Virus record (IMG/VR): IMGVR_UViG_2671180608_000012
From: a virus
Lineage: Duplodnaviria > Heunggongvirae > Uroviricota > Caudoviricetes
Strand: one strand, 5' to 3'
Length of the DNA stretch: 10,537 nucleotides
This document shows positions 1 through 6,663 of the stretch, piece after piece; position 1 is the stretch's first letter, and the number at the start of each line of letters is the position of its first letter. Both the position numbers and the translations under genes were made by a program. Below the pieces are notes generated by a model. The model saw only the letters and a list, made by a program, of their open reading frames with translations. It ran no database searches and was not told the DNA's origin.

Positions 1-12
1 AGTGTAGCGGTA

Positions 13-1290
13 TTAAGCGCAGCTATTTAGTGAATTAAGTAAATTAGTCAGTGACCTTGTAAAGTCTGTTAAACCTTCCTGTGAACCATCGAACATTAAG
101 GCCAGATTATTATTCCATGAATTACTTAAGCGGCCTAACTGCGTCTGAGTAGAGTTAATAATCTTTTCCCATCCACCAGCTTTATCAATCATCCTTCCCA
201 TTTCAGCGGATACTTTAGGAAAAACATCTTTAGAAAGAACCTTACCGTCTTTCATGGCCTTGTCTAATTCTTCCGTAGTCATCCCAAGACTTCTGGCAAA
301 TAACTGAAAAGCACCTGCCATTCTGTCACCTAATTGACCGCGTAGCTCTTCAGCCTGAATCTTTCCTTTAGATGCCATCTGCTCGAAAGCTTTTAAAATC
401 CCGTTAATTTCATCGGTGCTTAGCCCCATTAATCTGGATGTACCAATCACATTAGAAAATAAGGATTCTTTCTGGTCTGCATTCATATCACCAGCACCAG
501 CGGAAAACTTAGCAAAACTGCTTAATGTTTCAATCTGGTCTACACCACTACTATCAGCAAGATTCTTAACAAATTCTGTAGCTCGTTTAGCACCTTCATC
601 ACCTAAAACGAATTGTGCCGCTCGTTGTGATGCTTCTTTTTTCAGACCAACCTCCATAATCCGCCTGTAAGCTTCTAAGGCTGTCTGAAAACTATAAATG
701 GCTGTACCTGCTTTGATTGCACTCGTAGCTAATACATCCAGACTATTTGAAGCATTTTCACTGTGATTATTTTTGCTGGTGGTCTTGTTAAACTTAGAAA
801 GTGTTTCACGAAGAGACTGATTTAACTTTGCTAACTCACGATTAAAAGTTTCGTTTCCAAGTGTCTTGGATTTACTGCTTAAGCTGTAATACTGGCTTTT
901 AAAATACTTCTCAAGCATAGGATTAAAGTCACGAAGCTTGCTCATATTCGCTGAGTAAGCTGCTGTGATTGCTCTGCTTCCGCTAATTCGTGGCTGTCTT
1001 GGTTGTCTAAGTGGCTTTAAAGTATCCTCAATTTCAGTTTTAATCTTAAACGCTCTAGTGTTTTTAAGACGCTGCTCAATCTTGGAAACAGTTTTATCGA
1101 CATTTCTTTCCATTAGTTTGAGAGAATCATTTAAAGGCGTAGGATTAACTCTAAACGACTTATTCAATCGCTTCTCAATTCGTGATGCTACCTGCATCGT
1201 TTGTTTCTCGGCTTTTTCCAAGCCTTTTAAAACTTTCTGAGAGTTAAAACTTAACTCAATCAGAAAATCATCAACTTTAAATTGTGCCAT
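13..1290 (-). CDS. Tape-measure-domain protein (phage tail length tape measure-like), 425 aa, complete
   Basis: ORF with ATG at 1288-1290 preceded by GAGGTG; stop at 13-15. Residues ~290-370 (NGILKAFEQMASKGKIQAEELRGQLGDRMAGAFQLFARSLGMTTEELDKAMKDGKVLSKDVFP) match from memory the conserved tape measure domain of phage tail length proteins. N-terminal 280 aa are K/S/N/L-rich and coiled-coil-like. Confidence 0.6.
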   Translation of the reverse strand: MAQFKVDDFLIELSFNSQKVLKGLEKAEKQTMQVASRIEKRLNKSFRVNPTPLNDSLKLMERNVDKTVSKIEQRLKNTRAFKIKTEIEDTLKPLRQPRQPRISGSRAITAAYSANMSKLRDFNPMLEKYFKSQYYSLSSKSKTLGNETFNRELAKLNQSLRETLSKFNKTTSKNNHSENASNSLDVLATSAIKAGTAIYSFQTALEAYRRIMEVGLKKEASQRAAQFVLGDEGAKRATEFVKNLADSSGVDQIETLSSFAKFSAGAGDMNADQKESLFSNVIGTSRLMGLSTDEINGILKAFEQMASKGKIQAEELRGQLGDRMAGAFQLFARSLGMTTEELDKAMKDGKVLSKDVFPKVSAEMGRMIDKAGGWEKIINSTQTQLGRLSNSWNNNLALMFDGSQEGLTDFTRSLTNLLNSLNSCA

Positions 1291-1380
1291 TCATATTTTT
1301 CACCTCTTTAAGCGTGTTGTACGTAAATTCTATTTTTCAGTGTGGGTATTAGCTTTACAGATTTCACGTAGCACACATAC

Positions 1381-1422
1381 AAAAAAAGGGAGAGCTACCG
1401 ATGTCACTCGATAATCTCTCCC
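1381..1422 (-). terminator. Rho-independent terminator after the 69-aa gene
   Basis: On the minus strand: GGGAGAG (rc of 1416-1422), 21-nt loop, CTCTCCC (rc of 1388-1394), then TTTTTTT (rc of 1381-1387). Lies between the stop of the 69-aa ORF and the start of the tape-measure-like gene. Confidence 0.5.
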
Positions 1423-1446
1423 CGTATTTACCCAACCAATTCTTTT

Positions 1447-1656
1447 TTAATGTCGGACAAGATAATGTAATTCCGTTTCACCTATGATTTGAGCATCAGA
1501 AGGAATACGGTCAATACACCACTTTGGAATCTTGCGTGTTTTTGGTTTGTGTGAGGTGATAACTTGACGTTTGTTTTTAATTCTTAAGGCTGGCTTAGTT
1601 TGTAACTTTAAGTTTTCACAAACAGACCGAATAGTCTCTAAACGTTCTTCAAACAT
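1447..1656 (-). CDS. Hypothetical small basic protein (69 aa)
   Basis: ATG at 1654-1656 preceded by AAAGAGGTG; K/R-rich; 23 nt downstream of the 236-aa gene; no recognisable family. Confidence 0.45.
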   Translation of the reverse strand: MFEERLETIRSVCENLKLQTKPALRIKNKRQVITSHKPKTRKIPKWCIDRIPSDAQIIGETELHYLVRH

Positions 1657-1678
1657 TAATCACCTCTTTAATTCATAA

Positions 1679-2389
1679 TCAAACAGCCTTGCTATACTTC
1701 TGAGAAATCTTCGTTAACTGCTCAATATCAGCCATCAAAGCAATCTTCTTCTGCGACTCATATTCACTAACAAGTTCTTTCATAGTATCAAGTTCTTTTT
1801 TAAGCTTTTGCTTTAACTTATCCAGTTTACCGGAATAATGCTTAGTCAAATTAGCTTCAGCTAACTGAAGAATCTCTTCATCTGTTTTATCAGTCATCAG
1901 AATAAATTGACCAGAACCCCTTAATGCTTGTCTGACATCAATTAACCGGAACCCTTCAGGGATACTTTGAAGAACTTTAGGAACGTCTTCAATCGCTGTA
2001 CCAAAACCATCATTAAAGTTTCCTTCATAATAGATAAACGGGTTTGACTTAATCTCGTAAGCAATATCATATTCTGAAGGTTTCGAGGTTTCTTCGAAGT
2101 TCTTAACAGCATCGTAAGCGACATCAAGTCTAAGACGCTGTGATTTTAAAGCTGGGTAATATTCACGCTCAAGCTCAAATAGTGCTTCAGTTTTGCAGAT
2201 ATCAGGCATTTCTTGAGGCTCAGGAGACACAAAGGAAATTACCTTTGGTGACATCTTTAGCTCTTGCTCAAGCTCAATGCGCTTGTCATGCTCTTGACGC
2301 TGAATAGTATGTAGCGGATGTTCACCCTGTGGTGACCAGTCTCCGAAGCTATCAACCTTTTTACCGTTAATATATAAATCGTTTGTCAT
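1679..2389 (-). CDS. Hypothetical protein (236 aa), cassette copy A large protein; paralogue of 4386..4997
   Basis: ATG at 2387-2389 with GAGGA RBS. Shares colinear motifs with the 203-aa ORF (PEPxEmP; NDGFGTAIEDVPKVLQSIPEG vs RDGWGYDPVEIGKVIADLPEG; following R-rich segment; coiled-coil tail). No known family recognised. Confidence 0.65.
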   Translation of the reverse strand: MTNDLYINGKKVDSFGDWSPQGEHPLHTIQRQEHDKRIELEQELKMSPKVISFVSPEPQEMPDICKTEALFELEREYYPALKSQRLRLDVAYDAVKNFEETSKPSEYDIAYEIKSNPFIYYEGNFNDGFGTAIEDVPKVLQSIPEGFRLIDVRQALRGSGQFILMTDKTDEEILQLAEANLTKHYSGKLDKLKQKLKKELDTMKELVSEYESQKKIALMADIEQLTKISQKYSKAV

Positions 2390-2477
2390 TATAATTTCCT
2401 CTAAGTGTGGTTATTTCTTAATAGAGCACCTTCAACGCCAATACACTTAGAAGATGACTTAACGATTTATTAAAGAT

Positions 2478-2518
2478 GCTCTATTAAGAAAAGCCCTAAA
2501 CATAATCTGTGAAGGGCT
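2478..2518 (-). terminator. Second (distal) intrinsic terminator of cassette copy A
   Basis: Hairpin GCCCT (2493-2497) / AGGGC (2513-2517) with inner 3-bp stem; on the minus strand followed by TTTTCTTAAT. Near-identical to the single terminator hairpin of copy B. Confidence 0.45.
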
Positions 2519-2580
2519 TTGGAGGTTTGCTTATAACGTTAACGAAGTTTCAGGAAAACTTTCTTTAAAAGCTCTGTTTA

Positions 2581-2617
2581 AAAACTCTTAAAGAAAGCCC
2601 TAACTCATGATTAGGGC
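2581..2617 (-). terminator. First (proximal) intrinsic terminator of cassette copy A
   Basis: Perfect 7-bp stem GCCCTAA (2597-2603) / TTAGGGC (2611-2617) with 7-nt loop; on the minus strand followed by TTTCTTTAAGAGTTTTT. Confidence 0.5.
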
Positions 2618-2780
2618 AAAGCTGTAAAGGATTCAATAATGAATGAACAAAGACTTTTTGAGATAGCCTCTCAGACCAACCTGAAAGGCTAGGACGAAAA
2701 GCATTGCACCTTTCCAACTCAGAATATCCATTCATCGGATTATTGAAAGAAAAAATAAGAGAGAATTGCTCTCCCCCATA
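2585..2780 (-). ncRNA. Candidate small RNA or terminated 5' leader (copy A), ~195 nt from predicted start to first terminator
   Basis: Lies between a conserved sigma70-like promoter and an intrinsic terminator; ~90% identical to copy B; no conserved reading frame (indels not multiples of 3, stop codon relative to copy B). Transcript ends are predicted, not observed. Confidence 0.3.
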
Positions 2781-2786
2781 TATACA

Positions 2787-2815
2787 ATTATGTCATGCTC
2801 AAGGTTGTTTGTCAA
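2787..2815 (-). promoter_or_regulatory. Sigma70-like promoter TTGACA-17-CATAAT (minus strand), copy A
   Basis: -35 TTGACA = rc of 2810-2815; -10 CATAAT = rc of 2787-2792; 17-nt spacer. Both hexamers are identical in copy B while the spacer differs at 4 positions. Confidence 0.55.
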
Positions 2816-2904
2816 CAGCCTTTAACAGATTGGTAACATTTATACTTTAATAGATGCACCTGCAATCATACCAATCAATACAAAACAGATAATCACCAAT
2901 TCCA

Positions 2905-3120
2905 TTAATGCACCACCTTCGAATCCGTCACCAGAATATTATCGCTATACAAAATTGCTATAGCCGCCTTGAGATATTTTTCAGGGCTAACGCTGTATTT
3001 GTTCGTTTCTTCGATAATAAGACGCTTCATGTTTGAGTCGGTAACAGGAAACATAAAACGCGGTTCACCAGTTTCAATTTCCTGAATAAAGTCTTCAATT
3101 TCTTCTGAGTTTTCAGCCAT
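2905..3120 (-). CDS. Small acidic protein, cassette copy A (71 aa as seen; apparently 5'-truncated relative to copy B)
   Basis: Protein MAENSEEIEDFIQ...ILYSDNILVTDSKVVH is 49/71 identical to the C-terminal 71 aa of the 108-aa copy B protein. Its ATG (3118-3120) lies 2 nt from an N-run and 14 nt from the IS end, so the true 5' end is uncertain. Confidence 0.5.
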   Translation of the reverse strand: MAENSEEIEDFIQEIETGEPRFMFPVTDSNMKRLIIEETNKYSVSPEKYLKAAIAILYSDNILVTDSKVVH

Positions 3121-3122
3121 TA

Positions 3123-3134
3123 NNNNNNNNNNNN
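3123..3134. other. Run of 12 N (assembly gap or masked bases) at the IS boundary
   Basis: Directly visible in the sequence. Confidence 1.
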
Positions 3135-3177
3135 TGAGGTGTACTGGCAATAGCGGACACTACCATTTGTTCTTTTT

Positions 3178-3996
3178 TTAAGCAGCCATCTGATGATATT
3201 TTTCCCTGAAGGCTGCCGGGGAGATATTCCCCAGACGAGAGTGACGACGCTGACGATTGTAGAAAATCTCAATGTATTCCCGTATTACTGAGATGGCTTC
3301 ATCCCGGTTATTAAAACGATAGTGGCTCAGGCTCTCATTTTTCAGCGTTCCCCAGAAGCTTTCCATCGGAGCGTTGTCGTAACAGTTACCTTTACGCGAC
3401 ATTGATGTTTTCAGACCAGACTGCTCCTGTATGACCCGGTAATCGTATGCGCAGTACTGTGAACCTCGATCAGAGTGGTGGATTAGCCCGGCAGGTGGGC
3501 GCTGGCTCCTGAGCGCCATAAACAGGGCTTTACCTGTCAGCTCTTTTGTCATGCGCTCTCCCATGGCGTAGCCGACAATTTCGCACGTATAAACATCTTT
3601 GATGCCAGCGAGGTACAACCATCCCTCCTGTGTGGCAACATACGTCAGGTCCGCCACCCAGACCTGATTTGGTGCTGTAGGAGCGAACGTCTGGTTCAGC
3701 AGATTTGGCGCAACTGGCAGATTGTGGTTCGAGTTCGTAGTCGCTCTGAACTTGCGTTTCTGCTTACAGCGTAGCCTTAGCTCCTTACGAAGACGTGCCA
3801 GTCGGTCACGACCAACGATGATGCCATTCTCTGCCAGCTCCGTCTGGAGCCGCCGGGTTCCATATGTTTCGCGAGTGCGGATATGTGCCACCTTAATCTC
3901 CAGTTTTAGCCGCTCATCACTTTGTTTTCTGTCTGAGGGTTCATGCTGTACCCAGTTGTAATAACCGCTCCTGGATACACCAAATACCTGACACAT
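3178..3996 (-). CDS. IS3-family transposase OrfB (DDE catalytic domain)
   Basis: Motifs typical of IS3-family OrfB: NQVWVADLTYV, HHSDRGSQY, CYDNAPMESFW, YNRQRRHSRLG. Coordinates are from the first Met; the orfB frame actually extends upstream to the frameshift site near 4077-4083 and is probably expressed as an OrfAB fusion. Confidence 0.85.
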   Translation of the reverse strand: MCQVFGVSRSGYYNWVQHEPSDRKQSDERLKLEIKVAHIRTRETYGTRRLQTELAENGIIVGRDRLARLRKELRLRCKQKRKFRATTNSNHNLPVAPNLLNQTFAPTAPNQVWVADLTYVATQEGWLYLAGIKDVYTCEIVGYAMGERMTKELTGKALFMALRSQRPPAGLIHHSDRGSQYCAYDYRVIQEQSGLKTSMSRKGNCYDNAPMESFWGTLKNESLSHYRFNNRDEAISVIREYIEIFYNRQRRHSRLGNISPAAFREKYHQMAA

Positions 3997-4031
3997 CGCT
4001 TCAATGGGAAATTGTTGTCGCCATTGTTCGA

Positions 4032-4334
4032 TTAACGCGTATTTTTCAGCGACTCCTGTGCAAAATACGCTGTTGCTTTTTTTAATATATCTCGCTCAAG
4101 GCGAGCTTCATTTAACGCCTTACGCAGTTGCAGAATTTCAGATTCCAGTTCAGCCACCGTGCGGGAACCAGGAGTACCGAGCCCTTTTCTGGCGGCGGTA
4201 ACCCATTGTCCTAAAGTGCCTTCAGGAAGAGATAATCGGGAAGCGCCTTCACTGATCGAAAGTTGATTTTCAGGAACCGTTCTGACAGCTTCGGCTTTGA
4301 ACTCTTTAGAGTAACGTTGGGTTTTTCTGCTCAT
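4032..4334 (-). CDS. IS3-family transposase OrfA (HTH plus leucine-zipper region)
   Basis: ATG at 4332-4334 preceded by GAAGGAG; 100 aa ending ...ILKKATAYFAQESLKNTR, resembling IS3-family OrfA; slippery heptamer lies at the LKK codons. Confidence 0.85.
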   Translation of the reverse strand: MSRKTQRYSKEFKAEAVRTVPENQLSISEGASRLSLPEGTLGQWVTAARKGLGTPGSRTVAELESEILQLRKALNEARLERDILKKATAYFAQESLKNTR

Positions 4335-4385
4335 TATTAGCTCCTTCTGATGCCATTCTATTTCAGGAAGGAGTGTCCGTTAAAC

Positions 4386-4997
4386 TCAGGCTACCTCACT
4401 AATCAGCTTAGCCAGTCTTGATTTCAGCAAATTAATCTCATTTTCTCTTGCTTTCATCAGTTTCTCTTTGGCAATTTCTTCAAGCTCAGCTTGTGATTTA
4501 TCAGCAACAATTAGAGACAGTCGATGTGGTGCTCTGACAGCTCTTTCTGTACGAACAACTCTTTGACCTTCTGGTAAATCTGCAATCACTTTACCAATCT
4601 CTACAGGGTCATACCCCCAACCGTCACGGTCTAGTCGAGAGAAATAAGCATAAGAATTGGTTTGAAGCTCCATCGAAATAACCATTTCGTCAATTTCGTC
4701 TTCAAGCTTGGACTGAATTTTCTCGTAAACACTTCTCATTGCTTCTTGAGAGTCTTTAATAGCTTGGAAATATCGGCGTTGTAGCTTCAACTTCAAATCA
4801 AGTTCACACCGTTCGTTCATAGAAAAATCAATTTCAACTCTTGGAATCTCGAGTGGTTCTGGTGGAATATATGGACCTTTATTTACTTCGTGTGATTCCC
4901 GCCAAGCTCTATCAAAAGATTCACGCAAAGTTAATTCGTGAATATCAAGTGCACTTGGTCTGTGTTCGATAAGCATTTCATGTTCATTTCTAATCAT
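4386..4997 (-). CDS. Hypothetical protein (203 aa), cassette copy B large protein; paralogue of 1679..2389; 3' end runs into the IS
   Basis: ATG at 4995-4997 with AAGGGG RBS. The last three codons (EVA) and the stop are encoded inside the IS terminal repeat (IS ends at 4398). About 35 aa shorter at the C-terminus than the 236-aa paralogue. Confidence 0.6.
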   Translation of the reverse strand: MIRNEHEMLIEHRPSALDIHELTLRESFDRAWRESHEVNKGPYIPPEPLEIPRVEIDFSMNERCELDLKLKLQRRYFQAIKDSQEAMRSVYEKIQSKLEDEIDEMVISMELQTNSYAYFSRLDRDGWGYDPVEIGKVIADLPEGQRVVRTERAVRAPHRLSLIVADKSQAELEEIAKEKLMKARENEINLLKSRLAKLISEVA

Positions 4998-5100
4998 TCG
5001 TTCACCCCTTAGTTTATTTGTTATTTCAATTTATAGAAGCACACTCAGCAATCAGAGGTGAAGAGTCTGACTGAACAAGAACCTGCCAAGTGTGCTTTTA

Positions 5101-5136
5101 AAAACTGAAAAAGCCCTAAACATTTCTGTGAAGGGC
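5101..5136 (-). terminator. Intrinsic terminator of cassette copy B
   Basis: Hairpin GCCCT (5113-5117) / AGGGC (5132-5136) with inner 3-bp stem; on the minus strand followed by TTTTTCAGTTTT (rc of 5101-5112). Confidence 0.5.
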
Positions 5137-5290
5137 AAAGGATTCAATAATGAATGAACAAGAGTACTTTTTGAGATAGCCTCTCAGACTAACCTGAAAG
5201 GCCATGACGAAAAGCATTGCACCTTTCCAACTCAGAATATCCATCCATCGGATTATTGAAAGAAAAATAAGAGAGAATTGCTCTCCCATA
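5104..5290 (-). ncRNA. Candidate small RNA or terminated 5' leader (copy B), ~185 nt
   Basis: Conserved promoter upstream and intrinsic terminator downstream; ~90% identical to copy A; 5'-proximal hairpin GAGAG-caatt-CTCTC. The 69-aa ORF reported here (5116..5325) is not conserved as a frame in copy A. Confidence 0.3.
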
Positions 5291-5296
5291 ATTAAA

Positions 5297-5325
5297 ATTA
5301 TGCCATGCTTAAGGTTATTTGTCAA
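5297..5325 (-). promoter_or_regulatory. Sigma70-like promoter TTGACA-17-CATAAT (minus strand), copy B
   Basis: -35 = rc of 5320-5325; -10 = rc of 5297-5302; 17-nt spacer; hexamers identical to copy A. Confidence 0.55.
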
Positions 5326-5426
5326 CAGCTTTTTAACAGGTTGATAACATCAATTCTTATTTACCGCATTGTTAATAATACAACCAACAAATAAGCCAAG
5401 CAACGTCCAAGCAATTATTAAACCCA

Positions 5427-5753
5427 TTAGTGAACCCTCACAGAATCCGTCACCAGAATATTATCACTGTACAGGATTGTCACAGCACCTTTCAAAAATT
5501 GCTCTGGGGAAATACTGTATATGTTCGTTTGCTCGATAACCAATCTTTTCATGTTGCTGTCTGTAATTGGTAGCATCATTCGAGGCTCGTTAAACTCCAC
5601 CGACTGAATAAAGTCAGAGATGTTTTCTACATTATCAGCCATCAGCTTTAGTAATTTATCAAAATTAATTGCGATACCTGCATCAATGAAGCTTTGCACC
5701 ATCATAGCAGTGTCGTTATCAACCATAATTTGCATTGGGTAATTATTCATTTT
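5427..5753 (-). CDS. Small acidic protein, cassette copy B (108 aa)
   Basis: Start placed at the internal ATG (5751-5753) preceded by AGGAG, not at the longer ORF-track start. Net acidic (about 14 D/E against 7 K/R). C-terminal 71 aa paralogous to copy A. No known family recognised. Confidence 0.6.
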   Translation of the reverse strand, partial: KMNNYPMQIMVDNDTAMMVQSFIDAGIAINFDKLLKLMADNVENISDFIQSVEFNEPRMMLPITDSNMKRLVIEQTNIYSISPEQFLKGAVTILYSDNILVTDSVRVH

Positions 5754-5917
5754 TAAATCTCCTATGAAACACACCTCAGACCTCTTAAAATAGCCATTCT
5801 GAGGCCAGTAACCATGCGGGTTACAGAGGGAGTTGCACTGGCTGGTAAGGTAATTTATCAAATTAAGGTGCAACTCTGCCTGTAAAGTGCATTCTACCGT
5901 TTCTTAGATGGTTATTT

Positions 5918-6337
5918 TTAATTGTCTTTATTAATCAATGGCTTAATGTAGAAATACTGTCTCCGTGAAATACCATATTTTTCTGTAATGTATCGCTGAG
6001 ATTGACCAGCATTTATGGCCTGAGTGATATCATCACGGTTATAGCGGTTACCACGGGATTTATATTTGTCACCATCCACATCTTCTGAGGTATTGAAGTC
6101 TTCAATCAGCTTAATTGCATCGTGAAGGTCATCTTCTGAGGCATAATCGAAGGTATGGATAATCTCAAAATCACCAGTATCTGCTGGTGCATTCTTCCAT
6201 CTGGAGAAGCGGGATTTTAATTGCTGGTGTGTGAAGGGTTCAGCATTACGAGTTAAATCTTTCCATGTTCCGTTATTCTCACGGACAAGGTGACCTCTAT
6301 GGCGATAAAACGCATGATAATCAAATGTGCATAGCAT
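5918..6337 (-). CDS. Hypothetical protein (139 aa) with C-terminal HTH-like segment
   Basis: Start overlaps the stop of the upstream RHH-like gene at 6337 (coupled). C-terminal DITQAINAGQSQRYITEKYGISRRQYFYI resembles a helix-turn-helix. Confidence 0.5.
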   Translation of the reverse strand: MLCTFDYHAFYRHRGHLVRENNGTWKDLTRNAEPFTHQQLKSRFSRWKNAPADTGDFEIIHTFDYASEDDLHDAIKLIEDFNTSEDVDGDKYKSRGNRYNRDDITQAINAGQSQRYITEKYGISRRQYFYIKPLINKDN

Positions 6338-6627
6338 TAAACCCCCAGCTTATCCGCCAGTTGATGAACCTTGGCACTCAACACCTGAATCATTGAGCAA
6401 CCTGCCACTGCGGACTGTGCTTTGAGTAGTTCCAGTTGGCCCGTTGTGATTCTGATGGCCTTAGAACCCTCTGCAACGCCCTTGATAGCGTCAAACGGTG
6501 TAAGGGCTATGTGTTCCTTCAAAATCTCACCAACAAGTGCTGTGTGGCTCATGGCTGGGTATTTGTCTTTGATTGCTGCCAGTCTGGAATATGCCTCTGG
6601 CAAAAGGCGTGTAACTGTGTGTCTCAT
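6337..6627 (-). CDS. Ribbon-helix-helix (Arc/MetJ/CopG-like) DNA-binding protein, 96 aa
   Basis: ATG at 6625-6627 with AAGGA RBS. N-terminus RHTVTRLLPEAYSRLAAIKDKYPAMSHTALVGEILKEH fits a beta-strand/helix/helix RHH pattern. Sits directly downstream of the divergent promoter region. Confidence 0.5.
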   Translation of the reverse strand: MRHTVTRLLPEAYSRLAAIKDKYPAMSHTALVGEILKEHIALTPFDAIKGVAEGSKAIRITTGQLELLKAQSAVAGCSMIQVLSAKVHQLADKLGV

Positions 6628-6663
6628 TAAATTTTCCTTCTTAAAATCTTTGACTTATAACTA

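Follow-up and report, generated by a model that had tools for sequence, protein, structure and literature searches.

Does an insertion sequence really lie between two cut-down copies of the same gene cassette? The stretch of DNA analysed here, 10,537 nt in length (hereafter the window), gives this appearance. A GC-rich element stands directly beside a run of N, and the two genes that face it, one from each of two cassettes made of a small gene and a big gene, are both incomplete. The original prediction offered an IS-associated deletion of both gene ends, or a mis-join at the N-run, as explanations. The two sides of the element were compared with 17 finished loci, namely 9 yecE loci and 8 tonB loci, to which all counts of finished loci below refer.

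Identity of the element and features of the window

Sequence comparison identified the element as IS600. All positions of 3135-4398 are identical to copies annotated as 'IS3-like element IS600 family transposase' on S. sonnei plasmids (1264/1264), which rules out a chance match. The element matched 890 plasmid records, almost all from Escherichia or Shigella, and at least 80% of it was covered in 247 plasmid records. IS600, first described in Shigella sonnei, belongs to the IS3 family and is listed in ISfinder with a length of 1264 bp and a 3-bp target duplication. The copy in the window shares with this reference the full-length identity, the TG...CA ends, the HTH_Tnp_1 and rve domains and the arrangement of orfA and orfB, the frame of orfB being -1 relative to that of orfA and the frameshift site being a slippery A7G (AAAAAAAG) at 4083-4076 on the minus (coding) strand of the element. 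A 385-aa fusion product is annotated for IS600 in finished genomes. Both ends carry TGAGGT, and the terminal inverted repeats are imperfect, with 24 of the first 45 positions matching. The element is apparently complete and intact, and in itself it shows no difference from the reference; what sets the present copy apart is the absence of a target duplication in finished genomes, which means later rearrangement or insertion history and not a different element. The GC content of IS600 is 0.491, compared with 0.374 in 1-3122 and 0.388 in 4399-10537. These results confirm, and by the 1264/1264 identity name, the IS3-family element that had been predicted from its orfA/orfB, imperfect repeats and slippery site, and the difference in GC content from the background supports the separate acquisition that had been proposed for it. 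The element is an already-known IS, and knowledge of IS600 is unchanged by the present data.

Table 1 Features of the window discussed in the text
Feature	Position	Strand	Remarks
Contig edge, 27 nt of IS630-type element	1-27	.	homology to the IS-free tape-measure gene begins at 28
Tape-measure protein fragment, tonB-yciI island	13-1290	-	425 aa; Pfam TMP_3, E=1.5e-21
236-aa big gene, tonB-yciI island	1679-2389	-	intact; the paralogue named in the original prediction
Small gene, 3' part, tonB-yciI island (copy A)	2905-3120	-	71 codons from internal Met37 of a 107-aa gene
N-run 1, 12 N	3123-3134	.	between contig 1-3122 (tonB-yciI island) and 3135-9381 (IS600 and yecE island)
Complete IS600 (IS3 family)	3135-4398	-	1264 nt; nucleotide identity, Pfam and ORFs
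IS600 orfB	3178-3996	-	272 aa; Pfam HTH_21, rve (E=8.7e-26), rve_3, rve_2
IS600 orfA	4032-4334	-	100 aa; Pfam HTH_Tnp_1, E=2.2e-19
203-aa truncated big gene, yecE island	4386-4997	-	native 4399-4997; tail E-V-A-stop from IS600
Intact 107-aa small gene, yecE island (copy B)	5427-5750	-	called as 107 aa in finished genomes; 324 nt in E. coli
N-run 2, 27 N	9382-9408	.	41 nt at 9306-9346 recur at 9522-9562
Short mosaic contig	9409-9831	.	tonB type, then yecE type, then tonB type; aligned with L011 and L017
N-run 3, 43 N	9832-9874	.	same 81 nt on both sides, 96% identical

Two chromosomal islands

The two sides of the 12-N run belong to two different chromosomal loci. The left contig is identical over its whole length (3122/3122) to the finished tonB-yciI loci L014-L018, and in the 8 finished chromosomes with this locus the island has cls, kch and yciI as neighbours at one end and tonB and yciA at the opposite end. 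The right part, 3135-9346, is 99.8-99.9% identical to the yecE loci L004-L012; in these 9 finished or near-finished chromosomes the island lies next to yecN, cmoA, cmoB and a yecE fragment, and IS600 follows the 203-aa gene. The contigs ending at 3122 and starting at 3135 are adjacent in none of the finished loci (0/17), and none of the 17 holds both flanks in one contiguous locus, as a simple insertion into a tandem array would place them. The examples of finished loci were de-duplicated, and the two islands are not displayed within one finished genome record; similar counts of blocks on contigs longer than 1 Mb (74 and 77) suggest that one genome carries both.

The window also departs from the finished loci at a few places. 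At 8447, 8461, 8555, 8951, 9124 and 9166, in and around the Dam gene, it differs from all nine finished yecE islands. Furthermore, neither S. sonnei island contains a match to the 35 nt before the second N-run (9347-9381); over the surrounding 9297-9376, the window shows 91% identity with the E. coli island L002. These differences could reflect a third paralogue, a lineage difference or another chimera.

Related islands are found in E. coli. An island of about 11 kb, with both flanks matching, is present in approximately 470 of 5426 complete E. coli genomes, and its sites, three or more in number, include the tonB-yciI interval (L001), the inside of yecE (L002, L003) and the vicinity of lafU (L022). 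The island genes encode a large serine recombinase, a Dit-like baseplate protein, a tape-measure protein and a small resolvase, and some versions, namely L001 and the yecE island of S. sonnei, add a Dam methylase. No capsid or packaging gene stands among the island gene calls, as judged by annotation or Pfam only and with most genes hypothetical. A megablast search of the phage collection gave no match for either flank, and a phage origin of the background was rejected on this ground and on the match of the flanks to E. coli chromosomal islands. The comparison with IS-free homologous loci, which had been proposed as a check, was made on four E. coli islands, IS-free or other (L001, L002, L003, L022); each of them (4/4, at three integration sites) holds one cassette, in which a small gene of about 107 aa is followed by a big gene of 234-236 aa, and not the pair that the original prediction had envisaged.

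In finished genomes, the 236-aa gene lies between IS1 and an IS630-type element, near tonB, yciA and yciI. Its orthologues (L003, 7080-7790; L022, 5080-5790) are named 'transposase' in RefSeq for some E. coli and 'hypothetical protein' for others, the annotation coming from PGAP for nearly all records. A Pfam search with the 236-aa protein gave no significant match, merely a sub-threshold Mod_r, and the 'transposase' label looks unsupported. For the copy B small gene, a 148-aa ORF with a TTG start was rejected as an over-extension, the gene being called as 107 aa in finished genomes.

Between the small and the big genes (2597-2815 and 5100-5330, both on the minus strand) lies a near-consensus sigma-70 promoter, TTGACA-17-CATAAT (11/12, with TG), and downstream of it a U-run hairpin precedes a core of about 95 nt, after which comes a terminator-like hairpin. 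The core is almost invariant across islands at three integration sites (including L001, L002, L003 and L022), the big genes beside it having a protein identity of only 27%, and the intergenic region has a fold z-score of -3.6. An Rfam search of the whole window at E<=0.1 gave no match, this region included. Judged from its sequence, the region could be a short terminated leader or a small RNA ahead of the structural genes, in an arrangement reminiscent of lambda PR'/6S.

Different elements at the two incomplete genes in finished genomes

In finished genomes, the two genes that are incomplete beside IS600 in the window are interrupted by different elements. The ORF of the copy A small gene starts with the ATG at 3118-3120, 14 nt from the IS end (2 nt and the 12 N), and this Met aligns with Met37 of the 107-aa copy B, leaving 36 residues missing. 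In all the finished tonB-yciI loci (8/8), the small gene is split by a 768-bp IS1 with a 9-bp duplication, CAATTGACC. The junction between the small gene and IS1 reads ...CCATTAGCTTTAGTAATTTATCAAGGTCAATTGG/GGTAATGACTCC..., and the IS1/small-gene junction is also marked by CAATTGACC...TAATGGCTG. Removal of IS1 and one duplicate in silico restored an intact 107-aa ORF, identical to copy B at 72 of 107 residues, and the missing 5' part stands intact on the other side of IS1 in the finished genomes. The clean 9-bp duplication and the restored ORF thus indicate that the N-terminus of copy A was never deleted and that its absence from the window is unrelated to IS600. The distance of 14 nt and a shortfall of about 37 residues had been rightly predicted; the IS-associated deletion of both gene ends is not supported, since in finished S. 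sonnei chromosomes the small gene is split by IS1 with nothing deleted.

Of the two truncations, that of the 203-aa gene alone is the work of IS600. The ORF ends ...AKLIS-EVA-stop, in which the last base of the Ser codon, the E-V-A codons and the stop are supplied by the IS600 end, just as the prediction of three IS-derived codons and a stop had it. Compared with the IS-free E. coli orthologue (L001, 234 aa), the protein is 92% identical and lacks the last 33 residues, close to the roughly 35 that had been expected. A search of the assembly collection for exactly this 203-aa fusion protein gave 1051 blocks; finished S. sonnei chromosomes are among them, for example CP000038.1, which we take to be S. 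sonnei Ss046. The tape-measure fragment at the left of the window owes its truncation to the IS630-type element: in finished genomes, a DDE_3 (IS630-type) transposase gene comes immediately after the cut, the fragment is identical in L014-L018, and the intact E. coli gene has 2067 nt.

These observations bear on the possibility that one island underwent a tandem duplication, that IS600 entered between the copies and that an IS-associated local deletion then removed the 3' and 5' gene ends. Such a history would account for the incompleteness of both IS-adjacent genes and for the collinear cassettes, which lie about 2.5 kb apart in the window (repeat families D1, D4, D6 and D7). It is nevertheless highly improbable and already largely refuted, as each half of the window matches a different chromosomal island at 99.8-100%, the 5' part of the small gene survives beyond IS1, and none of the islands examined (L001, L002, L003, L022) carries two cassettes. 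Furthermore, the big genes (236 aa and 203 aa) are 27% identical and the small genes 69%, which marks them as old alleles and not as products of a recent duplication.

The IS600 copy in the 203-aa gene has a history of its own. In every yecE locus (9/9), the sequence on its far side reads GGGTATAAGG... (junction ...CACCTCA/GGGTATAAGG...) and belongs to a lambdoid prophage remnant with DUF1737, PmrD-like, Q antiterminator and RusA genes. The flanking bases are TAG/GGG in 9 finished genomes and TAG/TCC in L021, an IMG/VR locus with the same 203-aa/IS600 junction and a different lambdoid flank, and neither pair forms a 3-bp duplication; within the window, one flank is hidden by the N-run. Two nearby IS600 copies in the same loci have clean 3-bp duplications (GAA and AAC). 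Since the far flank differs between genomes and the target duplication is missing, this IS600 copy took part in rearrangements. A second IS600 copy, at about 18846 in L004-L012, is also without target duplication (CCG/AGG), and in L021 two inverted copies (1-989 and 7355-8618) bracket a lambdoid segment of about 6.4 kb with methylase, Q, RusA and DUF968 genes; both observations are in line with frequent rearrangement through IS600. The part of the yecE island beyond the truncation comprises the last 33 codons of the big gene, a 69-aa gene, the tape-measure, baseplate and large recombinase genes and the yecD-proximal half of yecE. If the 203-aa gene was truncated by an inversion between two IS600 copies, this missing part would lie beside an IS600 flanked as GGG/IS600/TAGTGACC..., and its absence from a closed genome would mean truncation by deletion.

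Such changes resemble the IS-driven pseudogenisation and rearrangement described in Shigella (Hawkey et al. 2020, PMC7373316), where chromosomes hold 229-348 IS copies, all species share five IS that include IS1 and IS600, IS-driven variation is rapid in S. sonnei and half of the S. sonnei pseudogenes are due to IS. The same pattern appears here, with genes broken up by IS1, IS600 and an IS630-type element and with one IS copy whose flanks have been exchanged; relative to that report, the present data add two more decayed loci and nothing unusual.

The join and the patchwork of the scaffold

The window is composed of four contigs joined by N-runs (Table 1), of which the one beside IS600 had been recognized before and two further ones had gone unmentioned. 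The contig 1-3122 has its left end 27 nt inside the IS630-type element and its right end 28 nt short of IS1, and the contig 3135-9381 begins at the first base of IS600. The exact 236-aa protein occurs in 4271 blocks of the assembly collection, 3263 of them on contigs of 2-5 kb, which fits 1-3122 as a stand-alone 3.1-kb contig bounded by IS. The last base of this contig is the first of 19 nt (AGCTTTAGTAATTTATCAA) that the two small genes share exactly in finished genomes (copy B, 5644-5662). The agreement may be a coincidence, and we do not rely on it as the cause of the break because shared runs of up to 39 nt inside the contig are unbroken.

The right part of the window mixes alleles of the two islands. 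In the short contig 9409-9831, the first ~160 nt are the tonB allele, the middle ~65 nt are the yecE allele, from which the tonB allele differs there, and the last 81 nt carry three tonB-type variants. The same 81 nt stand on both sides of N-run 3, as a tonB-type allele at 9751-9831 and as a yecE-type allele at 9875-9955, and the true relation of the two pieces is thus an overlap and not a gap. The right end of the window falls exactly where the tonB and yecE islands become identical. N-runs 2 and 3 look like places where paralogous pieces were set in series and not like gaps, and the idea that N-runs mask collinear sequence was rejected, as the flanks of the 27-N and 43-N runs overlap on finished genomes. 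The scaffold demonstrably interleaves pieces of two paralogous islands, and the lengths of its N-runs are uninformative.

We consider it likely, with a probability of about 80%, that the join across 3123-3134 is a scaffolding artefact as well, and that IS600 between two cassettes with both neighbours truncated is not a real locus; for the source strain itself, we infer that the 12-N join is artificial. The source would be a draft, short-read-type assembly scaffold of an S. sonnei-like genome in which tonB-yciI and the inside of yecE each host a phage-like island of about 11 kb. The two islands would be paralogues with one cassette apiece, both encoding serine recombinases, a tape-measure protein and a baseplate protein. 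In the tonB island, the splitting of the small gene by IS1 and the cutting of the tape-measure gene by the IS630-type element would leave a unique piece of 3.1 kb, corresponding to 1-3122. In the yecE island, IS600 would sit in the big gene after codon 200, with the far side exchanged for the lambdoid prophage remnant. The assembler would have broken the sequence at the IS copies and at the segments common to both islands because these are repeats, and the scaffolder would then have lined up pieces from the two islands in a single row, separated by N-runs, the run at 3123-3134 creating the apparent IS600 between two cassettes with both neighbours truncated.

The mis-join that the original prediction named as an alternative is therefore the favoured reading, as the flanks come from two islands in the 17 finished loci. 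Its argument that a plain insertion could not remove both gene ends holds; its description of an IS inserted between the cassette copies is not supported, since finished genomes have the cassettes in separate tonB-yciI and yecE islands.

Repeat-induced scaffolding errors occur in short-read draft assemblies. The window compares with them in its contig ends at IS or paralogue boundaries, its arbitrary N-runs (12, 27 and 43), the duplicated sequence across a gap and the mosaic contig of two paralogous loci. It differs in one respect, which also speaks against a mis-join: the contig 1-3122 stops 28 nt before IS1 and not at the boundary. Two further points weigh on the same side. The source strain differs from the finished strains at the six clustered sites in 8447-9166, and 9347-9381 matches neither island, so the strain could have a rearrangement of its own; and the IS600 copy has different far flanks in different genomes.

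These points lead to the alternative that the source strain really has the two contigs side by side, IS600 having fused its tonB and yecE islands. An IS600 beside the small gene may have recombined with the copy that lies in the 203-aa gene, or the latter copy may have reached into the small gene by transposing within the same molecule or by an adjacent deletion; the 12 N would then stand for a few unresolved bases, and the sequence would run continuously from 3100 into TGAGGTGTACTGG. Either route implies that a large segment between the tonB and yecE regions was inverted or deleted. The variable far flank of this IS600 without target duplication (TAG/GGG in nine genomes, TAG/TCC in L021), the IS load of Shigella chromosomes and the rapid IS variation of S. 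sonnei noted above (PMC7373316) and the few sites at which the source differs from finished strains are compatible with such an event, and, given the shared gene order of the two islands, recombination products would resemble the window. We nevertheless regard a real adjacency as unlikely. At the small gene, all 8 finished tonB islands have IS1 and not IS600; the fusion needs at least two extra events and leaves an N-run exactly at the IS terminus unexplained; and elsewhere in this scaffold, two N-joins have been shown not to be simple gaps. Scans for the junctions found nothing elsewhere: exact scans of metagenome_contigs and viral_contigs gave no match for the left junction, and exact scans of genome_contigs, metagenome_contigs and viral_contigs gave a single match for the right one, L021, with its other far flank. 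The stricter version, in which an IS600 event in the source strain produced a hybrid island with two diverged cassettes by inverting or deleting several hundred kb across the terminus region, is a little more doubtful still.

For IS-rich genomes such as those of Shigella, an N-run beside an IS end in a draft scaffold can mimic tandem duplication, double truncation and IS-associated deletion. In biological terms the sequences illustrate routine decay: in S. sonnei, a pair of paralogous phage-like islands has been eroded by IS1, IS600 and an IS630-type element, and the IS600 copy in the 203-aa gene has had its far flank exchanged.
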